A stretch of DNA of 42,202 bases from a virus (IMGVR_UViG_3300037044_000216:1-42202); one strand, 5' to 3'. Positions 1,329-39,800 are shown, numbered from the stretch's first letter. The notes: generated by a model from the sequence alone, not told the origin. Translations and numbers: made by a program.

Positions 1329-1997
1329 TTACGCGGTCGTATTCAACCGCTTCGTTTTTTCTTTGGCGTGCCCTTCTCGTAAAGCTACGCCACGTAAAGA
1401 GTTATTCTCTACATCCTCGTTGCCCCACTGCGCCCACCCGTTCCTTTTAAAGCGGGCAAAAAGCTCAAGATACGGCCCAGGCGAGCAACTTTCAACAAGA
1501 TCGTAGATTTCGTCCGGTTTGCGGGAGTGCTCGCGCTTGCGGGTCGACAGGATGTTGACCTGCGTCCGTCCAGGCTTCAACGTGCGCATGCTTCCTCTCG
1601 TTCCGAACAGTATCAACTCGGTCACATTCCTAAAGTAAAAGCCTACACCCCTCCCATCCGGTCCTCCGTCCTTACGGACTTTGTACCACACCAGATTGCA
1701 TTTATAAGTGAATCCCCAAGCTCTCATGACCTGCAACCCCTCCTGTAGAAGTGCGTTTGGCACCCACAAGTAACAATGTGACTTCGCCGCAGCCAGCTTC
1801 GACACGGGAAGATCCATTATTTCTTGAAGTTCCATCGTTGGGTACCTCAACAGCCTCCGGTGTTCAGGAGCCATCTTCCCCGTCCGGTTCTGAAACTGCC
1901 ACGGCGGGTCAGCCAAAATAGTCGTGTAGTGACCTTGTGCCTTTTCAACTAGGTCATCGGATGGATTCGACTGGGTAAAATTAACAACCTTTGTCAT
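1329..1997 (-). CDS. MT-A70 family N6-adenine methyltransferase
   Basis: ILADPPW catalytic motif, YLWVPN, W.K, G.YFRN.TE, REHSRKP, LELFAR and W..WGNE motifs. Confidence 0.92.
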   Translation of the reverse strand: MTKVVNFTQSNPSDDLVEKAQGHYTTILADPPWQFQNRTGKMAPEHRRLLRYPTMELQEIMDLPVSKLAAAKSHCYLWVPNALLQEGLQVMRAWGFTYKCNLVWYKVRKDGGPDGRGVGFYFRNVTELILFGTRGSMRTLKPGRTQVNILSTRKREHSRKPDEIYDLVESCSPGPYLELFARFKRNGWAQWGNEDVENNSLRGVALREGHAKEKTKRLNTTA

Positions 1998-2571
1998 AGA
2001 GCGTCTCCTTTATTCCAAAAACCAAAACGGGGCAGCCGCCGCCGCCGCCGCCCTCAATCTTTGGCAACAGCTTTCTCATGTGCGTGGTCGAAGAACCATA
2101 GCTCTTGCCCCTCCCGAGAAGGTCAAATATGTCCTGGAGCGCGTCACACCGAGTTACAATAACCCCCACAGAGATAACGCGCAAGTCAAATAGCAATCTA
2201 AAATTGTTTAAGTCTCTATCATAAAAGGGGTCTTTATTGTTCCATTCAATCTCCAGGGCCACCCGATTTTTAAAACAGTCAACGGCATGTGTGGGGCTTT
2301 CAGTCGAAACACCGTCGACAGTAACCGACGTATCAAACTCTTTTTCTCTCCAGCCTTTTGCGTATAGCTCGCTGTCTATCCAACTCGAAACAGCCGACTT
2401 CCTTCCCCCGGGTATCGTTATGTAGGTTTCGCACAACCTAAATCGCGCCAACACATCGCACACATCGGCCCACTCAGCGGGAAAGTCACGCTCGAAGATG
2501 GCCGTGGCGTGCCTCCATTCATGTATCTCGTAGTTATCCCTGATACTCTGCGGCAAGGCGTCTATTGGCAT
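1981..2571 (-). CDS. BglII/BstYI-family type II restriction endonuclease-like protein
   Basis: THAVDCFKNRVALEIEWNNKDPFYDRDL (D...ExE nuclease motif); overlaps the MT-A70 gene. Confidence 0.82.
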   Translation of the reverse strand: MPIDALPQSIRDNYEIHEWRHATAIFERDFPAEWADVCDVLARFRLCETYITIPGGRKSAVSSWIDSELYAKGWREKEFDTSVTVDGVSTESPTHAVDCFKNRVALEIEWNNKDPFYDRDLNNFRLLFDLRVISVGVIVTRCDALQDIFDLLGRGKSYGSSTTHMRKLLPKIEGGGGGGCPVLVFGIKETLYDKGC

Positions 2572-3217: not shown

Positions 3218-3592
3218 TTACGCAGTCCTCATGGCAGCGCAGCCACCAGTTTTGGCAGGTGCGACAACCTTTGCTCGCCCCTCCGCAAGCAGCGATGTCA
3301 GTTTTGCAATCGTGTCTTGCTGACTTGAGACTAGGTTGCGCCAATAAGATTCATCTTTGGGTTGCTGAATTGACTTCACAGCAGAAATCACCTCTTCTGA
3401 AATCCCCAGCAGCCAATCAGCAGAGACTCCAAAAAGTCGGCAAATACTACCAATGGTTTCAATTGTCGGCTCCTTTTGGTCTCTCTCATAGAAACCCCAA
3501 GACTGACCAGAAACCCCGATTTTATTAGCAATCTCTGCTTGTGAGCTACCGTTTCGCAGGTCCCTTAGTTTTTCGCCTAATGTCTTTTTCAT
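3218..3592 (-). CDS. XRE-family HTH repressor (CI-like)
   Basis: LGEKLRDLR..SQAEIANKIGVS......YE....EP.......IC..FGVSADWLLG; divergent from early genes; no C-terminal peptidase domain. Confidence 0.88.
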   Translation of the reverse strand: MKKTLGEKLRDLRNGSSQAEIANKIGVSGQSWGFYERDQKEPTIETIGSICRLFGVSADWLLGISEEVISAVKSIQQPKDESYWRNLVSSQQDTIAKLTSLLAEGRAKVVAPAKTGGCAAMRTA

Positions 3593-18866: not shown

Positions 18867-20213
18867 ATGCTCAAAGCATTGTTTATACTTTTGCTTCCAT
18901 TGTTGGTCTTGTCCGAAGACAAGATCCACCTCGGGACCATTTCAAGCCTGACCTGGCAGAGCAGCGGGGCCAACTATGTCGCCTCCTGGGGAACAACGGA
19001 TCCGGGCCCGCAGCCCATCCTATGGTACAAGCTGGACGAAAACGCGCAGAATTACACCATCGCAGATTCAATGGGAACGGCATCGGGCAATACAGCCGCC
19101 AACTACACCGAGGATCTTCACACCAGCGGGCCCAATAACACTTCGGCGCTCTTTTTTGGTGGATATGATTATATCAGCGTCTATGCGCCGCACCCGGCCG
19201 AGTTCGACGGCACTAAACCTTTTAGCGTCACTTTTTGGGTAAAGTATCGTGTAACCGAAGAAAACCCGTTTCTTGTTGGCGTCGGCGCGCCAAACACGCA
19301 CTATGTCAAAGGGTGGGGCGCGCATTTATATGGCGGAAACATTTATTTTACAATTAATGCCGGCAGCTATTTTCAGGAGAACGAGATACAAAGCCGGGCC
19401 AACGGACTCGGGTTTGACTATACGGAAGACACCTGGGCCTTTGTCTGTGTCGCTTATGACGGCACGCGGAGTGCCTACGGAATTAAGTTTTATATTAATG
19501 GCGACACACAGAACAGCTATTACGGCAACGATTCAGACACGCTCACGCGAAGCGCAAAAGGCGACGAATACAGGGCGCTTACGATAGCAAACAACACGCA
19601 CTCCACCTCTCCTTTTAGCGGGGCCCTTTCCGATATCCGGATTTTTGATTTTGAGTTGAATGGACTCCAGGCTCAAGATGTTTTTATGGGGCGGCCGCTA
19701 TCCCCGACAACAACGACCGCGCCGGAGTGGATTGAACTTTTTTTCGATCCGTTTTCAACCTATCCAGGGGACTATCAGGCGGATGGCGTGTACGCTGAGT
19801 TTTACGCCGAAAGCTATAATCCGGCTGGCATGTTTTCCCCGTTCCCTATGGTATATACAACGGGGCCTTATCAGTCCGAGGGGTGGCGTTATGGATATGA
19901 TCTCTACTACAACGGCGGACCACTCCCACCAGATCAGGCGATGCTTACCGCGTCATGGTATTACGTTGAGCCCCCTCCAACCGTCACCATCTATTTTGAT
20001 GTTTCGACTTACCCGGGTGATCCGAGCAATGTGTATCTCGAATACAGTTCAAATAATTACGCAATCGGCGACACATTCGAGAGCATGCCCTATGTGTATG
20101 ATCCGACAGAATACGCCTATTTTAGCTACTGGCGGGATGAAAACTGGACCTCATACGACTCAATGGCAACAGTCCCCAGCGCGTCAACAACTCTTTACGC
20201 GGTATGGTTCTAA
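18867..20213 (+). CDS. Signal-peptide-bearing LamG/concanavalin-like protein with two InlB-B-like repeats
   Basis: WYKLDE, FSVTFWVK, W.FV...YDG....KFYING, F.G.LSDIRIF; C-terminal repeats FD.(F)STYPGD...W...LTASW / LYAVW. Confidence 0.8.
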   Translation: MLKALFILLLPLLVLSEDKIHLGTISSLTWQSSGANYVASWGTTDPGPQPILWYKLDENAQNYTIADSMGTASGNTAANYTEDLHTSGPNNTSALFFGGYDYISVYAPHPAEFDGTKPFSVTFWVKYRVTEENPFLVGVGAPNTHYVKGWGAHLYGGNIYFTINAGSYFQENEIQSRANGLGFDYTEDTWAFVCVAYDGTRSAYGIKFYINGDTQNSYYGNDSDTLTRSAKGDEYRALTIANNTHSTSPFSGALSDIRIFDFELNGLQAQDVFMGRPLSPTTTTAPEWIELFFDPFSTYPGDYQADGVYAEFYAESYNPAGMFSPFPMVYTTGPYQSEGWRYGYDLYYNGGPLPPDQAMLTASWYYVEPPPTVTIYFDVSTYPGDPSNVYLEYSSNNYAIGDTFESMPYVYDPTEYAYFSYWRDENWTSYDSMATVPSASTTLYAVWF

Positions 20214-33800: not shown

Positions 33801-36800
33801 CGGCGATGATCCTCCTTGATCTCACCGCTGACAACATGACGCCAAAGGCCGCAAAGGACATTCACAGCCGGATGCTCTTCCCCGGCCAAAACATGGGCAT
33901 GCCTGTTGAGGATTCTGTATACATTGAAAATGGTATGCTGGTTTCCGCTAAACTGGGCGCAGCGTTTGCGCCTCAATTCGCCACCAGCGCGCCGCAGATG
34001 GAAGTATCCGAAAGCGAAATACGCTACAGCATCGAGGCGGCCGAAGCAGAAGAAGCCAAGAAGGTAGCAGATCAGCTTTTCGACGTGTCCCTGGCACGGG
34101 ATCCAGGCGCGGTCCGTCTTGTCCCGGTCGAGGCCTTGCAGTCAGACAAGGGGAACCCCGAGAAGAGTATCACCAACGCGGAAGGGTTTATGCGCGCAGC
34201 TATGGCCGGAACCATGGCCAGGCGCGAACCGATAAACGTCGCCCTTTATGGCGATGGAACCATGTATGTGATCGACGGCAACGCCACGACCTCAGCAGCG
34301 AAGCGCATGGGGATAAAGGCTGTTTGGGTGCAGGCCAAGCCAGCCCTCCGGGGCGGCAGCACGGCAAACTCAGCCCTGTTTATCGACAACCGGAACGCCT
34401 ATTACAAGCAGTCATTTGCGTCGTTGGATGATCTCTATGCAGCAGCGGGCGAAGTCATGGGCGGGTTTTATGATACAGTTAAAGCGATCGCGCAAAAAGC
34501 CGGGATCGGATTTAAAACCCGGACCGGACTGAAAAAGAGGGAGCGCGTCGAGAAGAAAACAAGCGAAGAGTACAACGGCGATTTTAATCAAGTCGTGGAC
34601 GTCGCTGGGGCAACGCTTATTCTTGAAGAGGGGCAAAGGTTTGATGACGCCATCAAGGCTGTTAAAAAATCAGGGCTCGAAATTGTCCGGCTCAAAAACG
34701 GTTATACCGCAGAAAGCATGGGCGGCTACCGGGACATCAAATTAAACATAAAACTTTCCAATGGAGTTGTCGGCGAGATCATCGTTATTGAGGCCGAGAT
34801 CCTGAGGCTGAAGGATGAACACGGACACCACATATATAAAATGATCCGGGACGCCGGAAACCGGAAGCTAAAAACAGGGGATGAAAAATTAAAAACCGCG
34901 CTCGCTTCCCTGATTGATATCATGGAGCGCGTGAGCGCGGTTTACTACGGGATGTCAGATGAAACTTATGAAGCCTTGGAGGCGGCTCTCTCAGCTTCAA
35001 GCCTTTCGAGATACGCCCAGGCCTTAGACTCGTCGTCAACGAATTTGTTATCTGTGAAGTTCCCAGCGAAAAACAATTTGCCGGGTGTCTTAACACGCTT
35101 CCCATCTACAATCTTCAATTTCAAGCAGGGCGCACCATCATCCAGGCTCTCTAGGGCTTCTGAAACGACCTCAGTATCGTCATTAATTAAGAACATTGAG
35201 CTACTCCTTTCTTTAAACAACAATCTCAGCTTAGCACCAACGGGCCCGAATGACAACCGAAAAAAAAGAGGAACGAGCGAGCCTCGCCACGGCGCTAAAG
35301 TTGAGCGTTACGCCGAAGCATATAGGATGCTGTTAGAGAGCGATGCAGACTACAACCTTGTCCCGTCCAGTTTCGGTTTAACACAAGAAGAGGCTGTTGC
35401 TATCGAGATACAAGTCGAGACCGAGGACGCTCACCTCGATGATGACGAGCCGGATCATGAGGGTTATGACGTCGAAGGCGGCGGGCACGACATGGTTGAG
35501 ACGCCGTCGATCCAGGAGCTACTAACCAGCGGCTATCAAAAACTACTCAATTTTGAAGCCGGGAAGGTTGATATCCCGGGCACTACGCGCGAGGACATCA
35601 TCCTCGAAATGGAATACAATATCCGGGAGTTTGGCACAGAGAACCCGGCCGACACACTGGGCGACATTACAGAGGCCCAGGTCATCGAGATCGCAAAGGA
35701 CGCATGGGAATACCGCCAGGCGTTGAACAAGCGCCGGGCCTCCAAGGCCTTAACAAATCCGCGCTACAGTGTCAGCGCCGAGCAGGATGCCGCCTACCTG
35801 GCAGCCGTCCAGCGCGGAGACACCGACACGGCAGCGAAGATGGTGGAGGCAGCAGCAGAGGCAGCCGGATACCAGTTTAAAAAATACCATCAGACCAGCG
35901 GACTCGCGCGCCAGGCTATCTATCGCGAAGGATTCAGACTGGACAAGGGCCGCGCGCGGCTCAGCGACGAACAGGTCCCGGACGCCTTTTTCTTCAAGCA
36001 GGATCCAGCCGACATCAAGATCGGATCCGTTGACGACGCGGTCCAGATCCCGGTATATCTCAAATGGTGGAAGCCAAAGCTTTTCTCAAACCGGGCCGAG
36101 GTCGAGAAGTGGGCCAACGAAGATCCGCGCTATGTCGAGATAAAGGCCCGCATCAAAAAATGGGACAATGAGAACGACGAGGAATTCGACAGGCGCTGGA
36201 AACAGCTTGTTGAATTTGACAGGAGCCCGGACGCGAAAGCAGCCAAGGACGCCTTGCGCGCGGATCTTGCGCTCGATGAACACATCAAGGCATGGGAAGC
36301 CGGGACGCGGGCCATGGCAGCGGAGGCGCGCGCCAACATCACACAAAGGCTGCTCGATGAAGGCTATGACGCTATCTCTATTTTCCGGGACGAAGGATCC
36401 TTCAAGCGGGTTGTCTGGACCACTTGCGTCTTTACGCCCGAGCAGATTAAATCCGCCGACCCCGTGACATACGACGACGCGGGCCAGGTGATCCCGCTCA
36501 GTAAGCGGTTTGATCCGCTAAGCACAAACATCCGGTATCGCCTGGAGACAGAGCAGGCAACCAACGGCCTCGCATGGATGCGCGACTATTACGATGAATC
36601 ACACGGGGACCAGCAAGCCGGATCCGCACGGGACAAGCGCGAGCAACTGGCTGCCGAATTTGCGGCCGTCGAGGCGGCCCACACCAACCCCAACGGGACA
36701 CGCAAAGCCACATGGATGACGGCACCGAACGGAGCCCCCTCCGAGCTAAACGCGCGCAACTGGGTTTTAGTACGGACCCCGGCTTTCAAAAAATGGTTTG

Positions 36801-39800
36801 GAGATTGGGAAAAATTCGCCAACGGCAAAGACGGTAATGGCGTTTTTGCGGATGACAAAGGAGAGGTCTCGAAGGCAGTGGACAAGAACGGGGAACCCCT
36901 TGTCGTTTACCACGGGACGGAACGGTTTGGCTTCACCATCATGGATCCGGAAAAAGCGGACACCCATCGCAGCCCGATGATCTTTGCATCGAGCGAGCTC
37001 GGGACAGCCCGGTCCTACACTGGAGGGGCTACGATCCGGGACGTCCAGGACCTTGACAAGGCGGCTCTCGACGAGGTCGCCCGGGAGTTCTACGGAGACG
37101 AGGAAAGCTTTGACACGCTGCCAGCGGACAAGCGAAACGTCGTGGAAAAATACTATCGGGCTGAATTTGTCGAACCACAGAGCGGCGTATATCCATTATT
37201 CTTGAACATCCGGAACCCGCAGGAAACCGACTTTGAGGGCGCGAATTGGGACGGCGACCGCGAAGGGTGGTTTGAGATCTTCGACGAAGACGGGGAGAAA
37301 TACTACGACCGGGAAACAGGTAAAGGTTTCTTCAGTGACGACGACGCAGAAGAGATCACCGCCGAGCTCTCGATCCAGACCGGGAAGTCTTATGAATGGC
37401 AGGAAGCCACCACGCACCACGAGACAACCAACACCGTTTCAGAGGATGCCCTGAGGTTTGGACACGACGGCGTCATTATCCGCAACGTGGTCGATGACGG
37501 CGGACGCGGCGGCAGCGCGGATATCTCAGACGTCTTTGTCATCTTCAAGTCGAACCAGGCCAAGAGCGCCACGCAGAACATCGGGGCTTTCGATCCTGCG
37601 GACAATGATATCCGTTACAGTGTGCAAACGCGAAAGCTTGAGCCCATGGCCCTGCCCGACAGCATGGCAGAGGTGTACTCAGGCACGAACATCGCATCGC
37701 TCGCACAGACGAAATTCAAAGAGGAGCGCGCACGGCACAAGGCTTTTGTTAAGGCTCAAGAGTGGGACAAGGCTGAGGCGTATGCAAGAGGGCTCGCAGA
37801 AAAGGAGAGCACCGCACTCCTGGGGCACTACCTCCTTGCCAAATACCATGGCGACATGGAGTCAGCGCGGATCGTCGTGGAGAAGTGGGCCAAGCCAGAG
37901 GAGGCCTACAAGATTAAGCTGCTAGTCAACAGGGCCGAGATATTCCGGCCTGTGCTCGCAGCCCCGCTGGGGATCCGCGAGGGCAACAGGTTTAACGCGC
38001 TTCCCATCGAATATGCTGCATGGCTCGCCAAACAGATCGGCGGGGATGTTTCCAATCCCCTCCTCATGTCGGGAGGCACACCGAACACCGGGGCGACGAA
38101 CGCAGCCAGATCCGCCAACCCGCACACTTTTTACGGGGGCGAAGAGATCGACAATGTGTCGCCCGTCATCCTGGTGGATGACGTATGGACCAGAGGCGGA
38201 ACACTCTGGACAGCCTACGAACATATCAAAGAAGTCAACTCGCAGGTAAACGTCATCGCCTTCGCCACGATGGCGGTCAGCCGCTACGGCAAAAACATAC
38301 GGCCAACCCAAAATCAGTTGACCAGTTTTTGGAAAAAGTCTAAACTCACAACCATATCTTTTAAGAAGAGGATCGGCAATGACATTGAAAAACTCACAGG
38401 ATCGGAAATCCACGCATACCTCATTACAGGGAGAGCAGGCCCGGACGGAGCCCAGGAGTTCTTTGACGACGGACAGGGAGGAACTGGAAGCGATGACCAA
38501 GACAGCCGCCAGTCACTATGGGGTGAGGGTCCGGAACAAATCCGTTATGCCCTCGACGTAAGCGGTCAAGCCTATTCCAAAGAGGACCTCCTCACAGGGT
38601 TTATGGCACACGCTGCCATGACCGGAGCCACCTTCCCGAACAAGAAAACAGTTGCCCGCATCGCTGAAAATATCGGCGTCGAAACCTTCGACTACAAGAA
38701 GCTTTCAGATAAAGCCCGCGAGCTGGCTAAGACCACCGAAGACAAGGCCATCAAGAAAGCGGCCGTATCCGGAAGCCGGGACAAAACAGCCTACGCCATC
38801 GGCGAGCTTGCTCGCAAATCCGCGCGGGCCTACGTGAGATCCGGCGCGCGCGAAGGCGAACGCCTGGCCAAGAGCGCAGACCGGATCCGGGGCCTGACAG
38901 AGGAGAATGTCCGGAAGACCATCCAGCTGATGACCGCAGCCGACTACGCCGACCTTAAAACAGACACAGGCATCGACATTGCCGCGTCGATCCTGGCAGC
39001 GGATCCGCAGAAGTTCCAGCCCCAGGATCCCGAAGAGCCCACGGCCGCCGGATCCGGAGAGGCCGACGCCAAGGGAACTTGGGAGGATCCCTCCAATCCG
39101 GAGACCGACGAGAACGCGCCCGACCTCAGCGACAAGCAGCGCGCCGAGATCCGCCGCAAGCGCAAAGAACGCGAGGAGCGGGTCCAGGCGTTTCTCGAGG
39201 CGGCGACCAAGCGCGGGGCCCGCAACAGCCGGAAAGAAGAAGAGCAGAAAAAGCGAGCAGCCGACAAGCAACTCGCTCAGGCCGCCAACGGCAACGAAGG
39301 CGCAGGGGGTGACGGAGCGTCAGGGGGCAAGGCCCCGAAACGTCAGCAACAGGAGGAGGACACCCCAGGGGATCCGATCAACTTTGCGGACCGCTGGGCC
39401 GCCGCCGCCTTATTGCGCGTGTGGGCGTTCGACCGCTTCACAAAAGAGAACCCGAACCGGAGGCAGGATCCGGCAAACGACCGCGTCGCTATCGAGTTTT
39501 ACAGGAAGACGGCTGAGCGGCAGCTTTCCGATCTTGCGCGGAAGCTGCTCGAACCTGGCTACAAGCGGGAGGTTGTGCTATCCTGGATCAGCAACTTGTC
39601 GCCCGGGCTTTCAGCCAACCAGGTTGAACGCCGGACAGCCTACATTTTTGGACTGTTAAACCGCTACGCGGTACGCGAAGAGCGTAAATCCCTGGTTAAA
39701 AAATTCAGAGCCGAAATCAAGCGGCAGTTCATTAAAGGCGAAAGGTTTGAGGAGCTTGACGTTGATCTCGGGCGCGCGCTCACCGGAGCCATCGAGGAGG

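Follow-up and report, generated by a model that had tools for sequence, protein, structure and literature searches.

A predicted Tis1-type immunity gene nested antisense within a giant phage protein, behind an internal Tas1-like alarmone synthetase domain

Toxic alarmone synthetases of the Apk type, and the small immunity proteins that go with them, have already been described. Tas1 (Apk1) is a type VI effector that pairs with the immunity protein Tis1, and the complex has been solved (PDB 6OX6). Apk2, a (p)ppApp synthetase fused to a MuF domain, is found in temperate phages together with IapK (BcTis1) and Aph1, according to the available parts of PMC10083569 and PMC12226406. In Tas1 and Apk2 the toxin domain would as a rule be C-terminal, with the immunity gene directly behind it on the same strand. 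RelA/SpoT domains in phage polyvalent proteins and same-frame intragenic antitoxins are also known. Here we describe a different arrangement in a provirus record from IMG/VR (IMGVR_UViG_3300037044_000216). We refer to the whole record, 42,202 bases, as the window. In it, a Tas1/Apk-like synthetase domain lies in the middle of a giant open reading frame (ORF), and a 76-codon ORF lies just past the domain on the opposite strand, entirely inside the giant ORF. We suggest that this small ORF likely encodes a Tis1-type immunity protein, in an architecture that is new.

The locus resembles the Apk2 systems, as far as the available parts of those two papers describe them, in that a phage encodes a Tas1-like synthetase domain as part of a likely virion protein, and a partner of about 70 amino acids is encoded right behind it. 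In contrast to Apk2, the domain is internal in a 4802-amino-acid protein, the protein has no MuF match, and the GxN signature is absent. The partner is antisense and nested, with its own predicted promoter, unlike the co-oriented toxin-immunity operon of the Tis1/IapK type, and an HD hydrolase gene does not adjoin. Tas1 is the best solved sequence relative of the domain, and Tis1 is the best fold match of a nested protein from a related locus (L072). However, the window has no PAAR domain or type VI context, and the small proteins have no sequence match to Tis1. Neither MuF (Apk2) nor PAAR (Apk1) is among the six Pfam matches of the giant protein.

Other described systems share single aspects of the locus. 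The polyvalent proteins of Iyer et al. (2017, PMC5512222) are likewise giant multi-domain proteins with ART-PolyVal, ddrB-ParB, JAB, PRTase and RelA/SpoT domains. The domain section of that paper's main text mentions no immunity partner, and the main text uses "antisense" or "opposite strand" zero times; the supplements, which lie outside this scope, could bear on novelty. Rpn antitoxins (PMC10400941, available text) also lie wholly inside the toxin gene and are separately expressed. RpnS is the toxin's own C-terminal tail, on the same strand and in the same frame, whereas the window encodes a different protein on the opposite strand in mid-polyprotein. olg1 and olg2 of Pseudomonas aeruginosa (PMC8850804) are reported to be fully nested antisense ORFs under selection. 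They are described as evolutionarily novel, whereas the nested gene here appears to belong to an old immunity family that also occurs free and fused. The delivery domains fused to exported synthetases have been catalogued in PMC12691689, in whose available text "polyvalent" or "antisense" occurs zero times. We found no description of a nested antisense Tis1/IapK gene in the literature searched, mostly open-access main texts without supplements. Whether prokaryotes have fully nested antisense protein genes is contested, and those proposed can rarely be assigned a function. The function of this one is predictable and testable because the layout occurs in more than 20 divergent lineages, with promoters, selection, and free and fused family members.

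We found that the nested ORF has a putative promoter, a ribosome-binding site, a start and a stop of its own, all within the host ORF (Table 1). The initial annotation had described these minus-strand signals and a 76-amino-acid product, and every element was recovered base for base. The ATG is at 35196-35194 and the TAA at 34968-34966; in the promoter, the TG is at 35236-35235 and TAAGCT at 35233-35228. The AAAGGAG resembles the ribosome sites of the phage's ordinary genes (e.g., those starting at 3592, 2571, 1997 and 1309). The promoter scored 8/12, and a consensus promoter scan did not list it because of this score. Five minus-strand ATGs inside the giant ORF have AGGAG or GGAGG, and only that of the nested ORF combines at least 50 amino acids with a promoter score of 8/12. 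A second minus-strand ATG (40314) with a ribosome site and a promoter score of 8/12 opens an ORF of 16 codons. The hairpin and T tract upstream of the -35 may be a terminator-like insulator or resemble an UP element, judging from their sequence; terminator-like sites in the window numbered 4, versus 3.4 expected by chance. There is no second copy of the nested ORF in the 42,202-base record. A 793-nucleotide contig of run X2, from a second study, spans 34600-35392 with zero differences, so the overlap DNA is no assembly artefact. The contigs of four DNA runs contained no variants on the stretch.

Table 1. Features of the nested locus and its host ORF, in window coordinates.
Feature	Position	Strand	Remarks
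Giant polyvalent phage protein, 4802 amino acids	27794..42202	+	End of virion gene block
Domains of the giant protein: ddrB-ParB, RadC/JAB, ART-PolyVal x3; weak GNAT, ParB-like, RelA/SpoT-like and PRTase matches			
Tas1/Apk-like alarmone synthetase domain	34400..34960	+	About amino acids 2203-2390 of 4802
Ser/Leu/Asn-rich linker, plus-frame shadow of the antisense gene, ribosome site and promoter	34960..35260	+	
Nested antisense gene, 76 amino acids, likely Tis1/IapK-type immunity protein	34966..35196	-	Third codon positions shared with host frame
Ribosome-binding site AAAGGAG	35204..35210	-	7 nucleotides before ATG (AAGGAG core 35209-35204)
Extended -10-like element TG-n-TAAGCT	35228..35236	-	3/6 to consensus
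-35-like element TTGTCA	35251..35256	-	5/6 to consensus; 17-nucleotide spacer to -10
Hairpin (35288-35272) and T8 tract (35267-35260), directly upstream of -35	35260..35288	-	
Weak terminator-like hairpin, about 110 nucleotides beyond nested-gene stop	34845..34858	-	May be chance

We found that this layout recurs in relatives. Three collections were scanned with a pattern for the GYRD-motif region, which biases the sample to pattern-bearing domains. The scan yielded 37 viral loci, 120 metagenome loci (of ~230) and 121 genome loci (of ~130), with complete flanks for 80 loci in each of the last two sets. With the window included, 257 of 279 loci were confirmed as this synthetase domain, and they formed 154 clusters at 70% identity. 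The domain was terminal in 72 clusters, was followed by a short extension in 18, and was internal in a long ORF in 46; 18 were too short to class. Eight of the 46 internal clusters had a small domain fused in frame. In the 38 unfused internal clusters, the window among them, we looked for an antisense ORF of 50-130 amino acids with a ribosome site, in the relative frame used in the window, and with its stop 150-340 nucleotides after GYRD. A test for conservation of the antisense ORF, ribosome site and promoter in homologous modules had been proposed in the initial annotation. We found the ORF with a ribosome site in 26 of the 38 clusters and a promoter of at least 8/12 in 22. The same test gave 1/38 and 3/38 in the other two antisense frames. 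Six control windows in the same host ORFs and frame gave 4/29, 3/31, 0/34, 2/37, 2/33 and 2/31, with a promoter in none. A second pattern, for the window's variant of the motif, found 12 viral loci; the host frame was open in 11, and a nested ORF was present in 11/11 (10 are one phage group). On a quick tree (87 rows, for descriptive use), the window domain groups with other nested loci.

The synthetase domain ahead of the overlap is related to Tas1. The RelA/SpoT-like domain of the initial annotation was borne out, and could be sharpened to Tas1/Apk-like. The Pfam RelA_SpoT match is below cut-off (E 0.036), and the assignment therefore rests on 1304 relatives at E<=0.001 and on a profile match to Tas1. 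The best solved relative of profile A3 (30 sequences) was Tas1 (E 3e-23), followed by SaSAS (6e-7) and by Rel and YwaC (5e-5); in this comparison with solved structures the family is nearer to Tas1 than to (p)ppGpp synthetases. The window domain retains the family's five invariant residues (Asp, Tyr, Glu, His and Tyr). D67 and E126, which we take to be catalytic-site residues, are invariant in alignments of 30 and 50 sequences and are aligned to Tas1. The domain reads GYRDIKLN and GEIIVIE, and the GYRD form is common among relatives. Its predicted product is (p)ppApp, a toxic alarmone.

Similar small proteins occupy the same slot in other arrangements. Where the synthetase domain is C-terminal, a gene for 57-80 amino acids comes next on the same strand; elsewhere, a unit resembling it is joined in frame to the synthetase or stands in convergent orientation past the stop. 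These proteins have in common an aromatic strand, an Asp-x-Pro and a closing helix resembling I-S-E-E-E-A. A profile of 21 sense downstream genes, chosen by eye from 39 candidates, was run against 5371 six-frame segments; it matched the nested gene of L095 (E 3e-6) and weakly those of L054 (0.04) and L072 (0.055). A second profile, built from 21 nested genes, matched the convergent gene of L119 (3e-11) and further nested ones, and the profile-profile probability for downstream versus fused units was 95.8%. In the window, the nested ORF has its stop 242 nucleotides after GYRD, where the last predicted helix region of the domain ends.

Fused units lie ~90-175 amino acids after GYRD in L003, L004, L008, L012, L018, L021, L022, L027, L030, L035, L040, L062, L069, L086-L088, L092, L101, L103, L161 and L222. 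These in-frame fusions would be single-chain toxin-antidote proteins, many of them on large phage contigs, and by analogy could be a Tis1-type parallel to fused CapRel. Convergent antisense small genes stand right after a C-terminal synthetase in L010, L033, L055 and L119. They are possible intermediates between the downstream and nested layouts, and would suggest inversion followed by read-through as the route to nesting. L119 is sister to the nested L006 (support 99 on the quick tree), and may be a broken nested locus instead of an intermediate. In L070, L197, L104 and L218 the synthetase is preceded, on its own strand, by an immunity-like gene. In Bordetella phage PHB04 (L002:2245-4510), a portal gene is followed by a synthetase-domain protein, a 69-amino-acid gene and an HD hydrolase, an Apk2/IapK/Aph1-like trio with mostly hypothetical annotation. 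The 69-amino-acid product (P0004) looks similar by eye and gave no match to A2, and we did not accept it as a family member. In L038, L039, L083 and L205 the synthetase domain is internal, and neither a nested nor a fused partner was found at the usual position; these domains may be inactive, or immunity may be encoded elsewhere. In a Bradymonadia genome, a single long ORF region (L165 and L166) contains several synthetase domains in tandem.

The fold of one nested protein points to Tis1. We modeled the nested protein of L072 with AlphaFold from an alignment of 30 rows, in which nested, convergent and downstream members were combined (predicted local distance difference test, pLDDT, 91). The top Foldseek match was Tis1 (6ox6_B, chain B of the Tas1 complex; E 0.86, template modeling score 0.47), and it was again the top match in a second look. 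In a comparison with 48,161 chains, Tis1 ranked first (Z 5.5, root-mean-square deviation 3.5, 63 aligned) and was the only chain with Z>=5, the next being at 4.0. Tis1 was the chain predicted beforehand for this match. An Atlas hit for L072 (score 0.79, in a cluster with 11% Tis1_ImmP) was below the tool's 0.9 level, and we took it as a lead only.

The 76-amino-acid protein itself is more isolated. Its homologs are one frameshifted piece and two full-length proteins (63-66% identity), both of which were annotated as genes in the source data. The over-long N-terminus of P0163 reads VCH, then LKEGM, and by back-translation would be compatible with TTGTCA and AAGGAGG at the same places. Searches of Pfam, PHROG, PDB sequences and the Atlas gave no match to the 76-amino-acid protein, and profiles A4 and A5 gave no sequence match to Tis1. 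Protein-seeded locus searches were empty in viral contigs (seeded with the domain, the 76-amino-acid protein and P0014), in metagenomes (A2) and in annotated phages (the 76-amino-acid protein). A model built from two sequences (pLDDT 75) has an order of strands and helices similar to that of L072. We also folded the protein together with its own domain. The score (0.42, versus 0.05 for the best of three controls) gives weak support for binding; the runs scored 0.42, 0.80 and 0.01, agreeing in at least 0% of contacts with a partner pLDDT of at least 60. The mark was reached by 116/157 solved complexes and 2/215 mismatches, and at <=0.60 by 18/157 and both mismatches. Likeness to the solved Tas1-Tis1 complex may explain the score.

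We found that the antisense frame is under purifying selection in relatives; a per-strand selection test had been proposed in the initial annotation. For this we compared nested loci in 10 disjoint pairs, using third positions whose flanks are identical (293 overlap sites and 782 domain sites). Changes that were silent in the host frame and altered the antisense protein occurred in 0/15 transition and 8/212 transversion opportunities in the overlap, versus 18/67.5 and 38/362 in the domain. Set against doubly silent transversions, this gives a ratio of 0.43 (0.14-0.94) in the overlap and 1.22 (0.78-1.89) in the domain.

The plus frame is open across the overlap and rich in Ser, Leu and Asn, as had been noted. 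The giant ORF is unbroken, and the overlap is its strongest compositional anomaly (Ser+Leu+Asn 0.35-0.43, versus <=0.28 in other 60-codon windows). Nowhere else in the giant ORF does an antisense frame clearly exceed the sense frame in its protein-likeness score (0.27 versus -0.04 for the exact nested ORF). In 20,000 synonymous shuffles with the plus peptide fixed, the antisense frame was open in ~49%, because its third codon positions coincide with those of the host frame. An open frame alone was therefore rejected as evidence of a gene. All six features combined occurred in ~0.07% of the shuffles. Stop-free windows of 76 codons in this relative frame made up 9.6%. Among the 150 domain matches listed, 80 extend at least 80 amino acids past the domain, and 47 of these 80 have at least 15% Ser there. 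The plus-frame linker of P0014 matches that of the window (E 2e-8).

Based on these results, we consider it probable that the internal domain is a Tas1-like toxin in an injected virion protein and that the nested gene encodes its immunity protein. The antisense frame of 76 codons is very likely a genuine gene with transcription of its own, and its product likely binds and blocks the neighboring Tas1-like domain. A separately transcribed immunity gene inside the polyprotein frame was the central proposal of the initial annotation. The recurrence in 26/38 clusters, the free and fused equivalents, the selection in relatives and the Tis1-like fold of the nested L072 protein support it, with transcription predicted from the promoter-like elements.

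We propose that a toxin domain placed in mid-chain would lose the sense-strand slot behind it, because an immunity gene there would break the giant frame. The immunity gene could then keep the same distance but be encoded on the other strand, where it would have a ribosome site and a sigma-70-type promoter of its own. It would use the wobble-sharing frame, and the giant protein would read through as a tolerant Ser-rich linker, presumably the sole cost. With its own promoter, the antidote could be made in the lysogen and ahead of the late genes, guarding the producer during virion assembly. It would likely also guard the lysogen when kin phages inject the same domain, and a naive host would get the toxin domain alone. 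Toxin and antidote would move as one cassette.

Several results weigh against this interpretation. Twelve of the 38 internal lineages fail the nested-ORF test (one of them, L019, has a nested ORF that stops just beyond the test window), and two of the 26 passes (L171 and L181) resemble chance. The clusters are not independent, and the nested label needs only four changes on the quick tree. P0001 and P0163 were compared at the protein level. None of six family profiles detected the 76-amino-acid protein or P0001 at a meaningful level, its profile-profile probability against a mixed family alignment was 5.9%, and the nested-only and downstream-only profiles matched poorly (9.6%). Pfam Tis1_ImmP (PF24154) matched nothing in the genome, in 0/25 related records and in 0/30 family members; the model is narrow, since the records and members it misses include downstream genes. 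The Z of 5.5 for L072 is below the tool's caution level of 8, and the alignment behind that model mixed nested and downstream members. With the model of the 76-amino-acid protein, Tis1 ranked 15 of 48,161 (Z 3.2, root-mean-square deviation 3.5, 59 aligned), among unrelated folds, and Foldseek gave nothing at E<=0.001, with Tis1 absent among the 50 matches listed. Because profiles, Pfam, fold and co-fold were weak or negative, the family assignment of the window's copy leans on position, frame, size and order of secondary structure more than on sequence, and weakly on structure. The selection test covers relatives and rests on few events, and for transversions the Fisher p was 0.05. The host frame is constrained in the overlap too (0.31; 0.07-0.72; four events), and stop avoidance and the host-protein alignment contribute. 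The available part of PMC12226406 gives GxN (syn3) and a His in syn4 as Apk signatures, and the window domain has neither. Two residues past its conserved Glu the domain has Ile, as in 2/154 clusters, where 149/154 have Gln or Arg. Since GxN is absent and Ile stands in place of Gln or Arg, the domain may be weak, altered or dead; for the same reason, its product and toxicity are given here as predictions.

These differences in the domain bring up the alternative that survives best, which we consider unlikely: the nested gene would be real and derived from an immunity gene, the synthetase would be inactive or non-toxic, and the small protein would be a relic or would act in trans against synthetases injected by other phages. 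The altered motif after the presumed catalytic Glu, the missing GxN and the strong divergence of the 76-amino-acid protein from other nested proteins are what this alternative would lead one to expect. However, the five invariant residues are retained, intact relatives that have nested genes show the Ile variant as well, and IapK proteins mostly act with specificity for the cognate toxin (PMC12226406, available part).

The isolation of the 76-amino-acid protein, with no sequence link to the family and a fold match within background, could also mean that it has no relationship to Tis1 and took over the slot from the immunity gene, serving as a lysogen-expressed moron, a chaperone or a regulator. 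We regard this as quite improbable. Position, frame, length and strand/helix order are those of the Tis1-like nested family, the window domain groups with other nested loci, and the co-fold score, although weak, exceeded the controls.

It is very unlikely that an antisense RNA is the working product and the ORF secondary, with transcriptional collision or pairing shutting off the giant late gene in the lysogen. The promoter does face the giant gene, promoter-like sites occur in 22 of 38 lineages, and the ribosome site is weak in some relatives (the L281 group). However, selection acts on the antisense frame at the protein level, and there are conserved protein homologs and look-alike proteins encoded as plain or fused genes. 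Such silencing could be a side effect of the nested gene. Finally, a chance shadow ORF of a Ser-rich linker would fit the frame being open in about half of synonymous shuffles, the 9.6% of stop-free windows and a promoter of only 8/12, but we find it hardly credible given the rarity of all signals combined, the promoters in 22/38 clusters versus none in frame-matched control windows, and the selection on the antisense frame.

If the nested gene encodes an immunity protein, as we favor, this suggests that RelA/SpoT domains of polyvalent proteins are toxins that need immunity and not just signal makers, and it bears on the role of virion-borne Apk toxins. We hold a more general reading tentatively, as close to evenly balanced: phages would have solved mid-chain toxins by placing an immunity gene and promoter on the back of a linker, a self-immunising, frame-preserving cassette for any polyprotein; lysogens would gain allele-specific immunity to a virion-injected (p)ppApp toxin; and further immunity genes, so far unannotated, would be concealed in the Ser-rich linkers behind other toxic domains. 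Standard annotation keeps the giant ORF and would miss such nested genes, and the recognisable Ser-rich shadow in the plus-frame linker offers a search rule.

The giant ORF follows terminase, portal, capsid and tail genes. Because RadC/JAB, ART-PolyVal and ddrB-ParB, three Pfam families, are above cut-off in it, its product is a polyvalent protein in the sense of PMC5512222, as far as its main text goes. From its context downstream of the portal, capsid and tail genes, it would be packaged in the virion and injected. At 38100-38500 it contains a PRTase-like domain followed by a dip in G+C content at first codon positions, and antisense frames there never outscore the sense frame. A virion-block protein (18867-20213, plus strand) has a concanavalin/LamG-like domain and also scores on Pfam Toxin_R_bind_N, likely through a shared fold. 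The left part of the window contains a repressor-like gene and an adjoining restriction-modification pair, consisting of MT-A70 methyltransferase and BglII-like endonuclease genes (1329-2571, minus strand).

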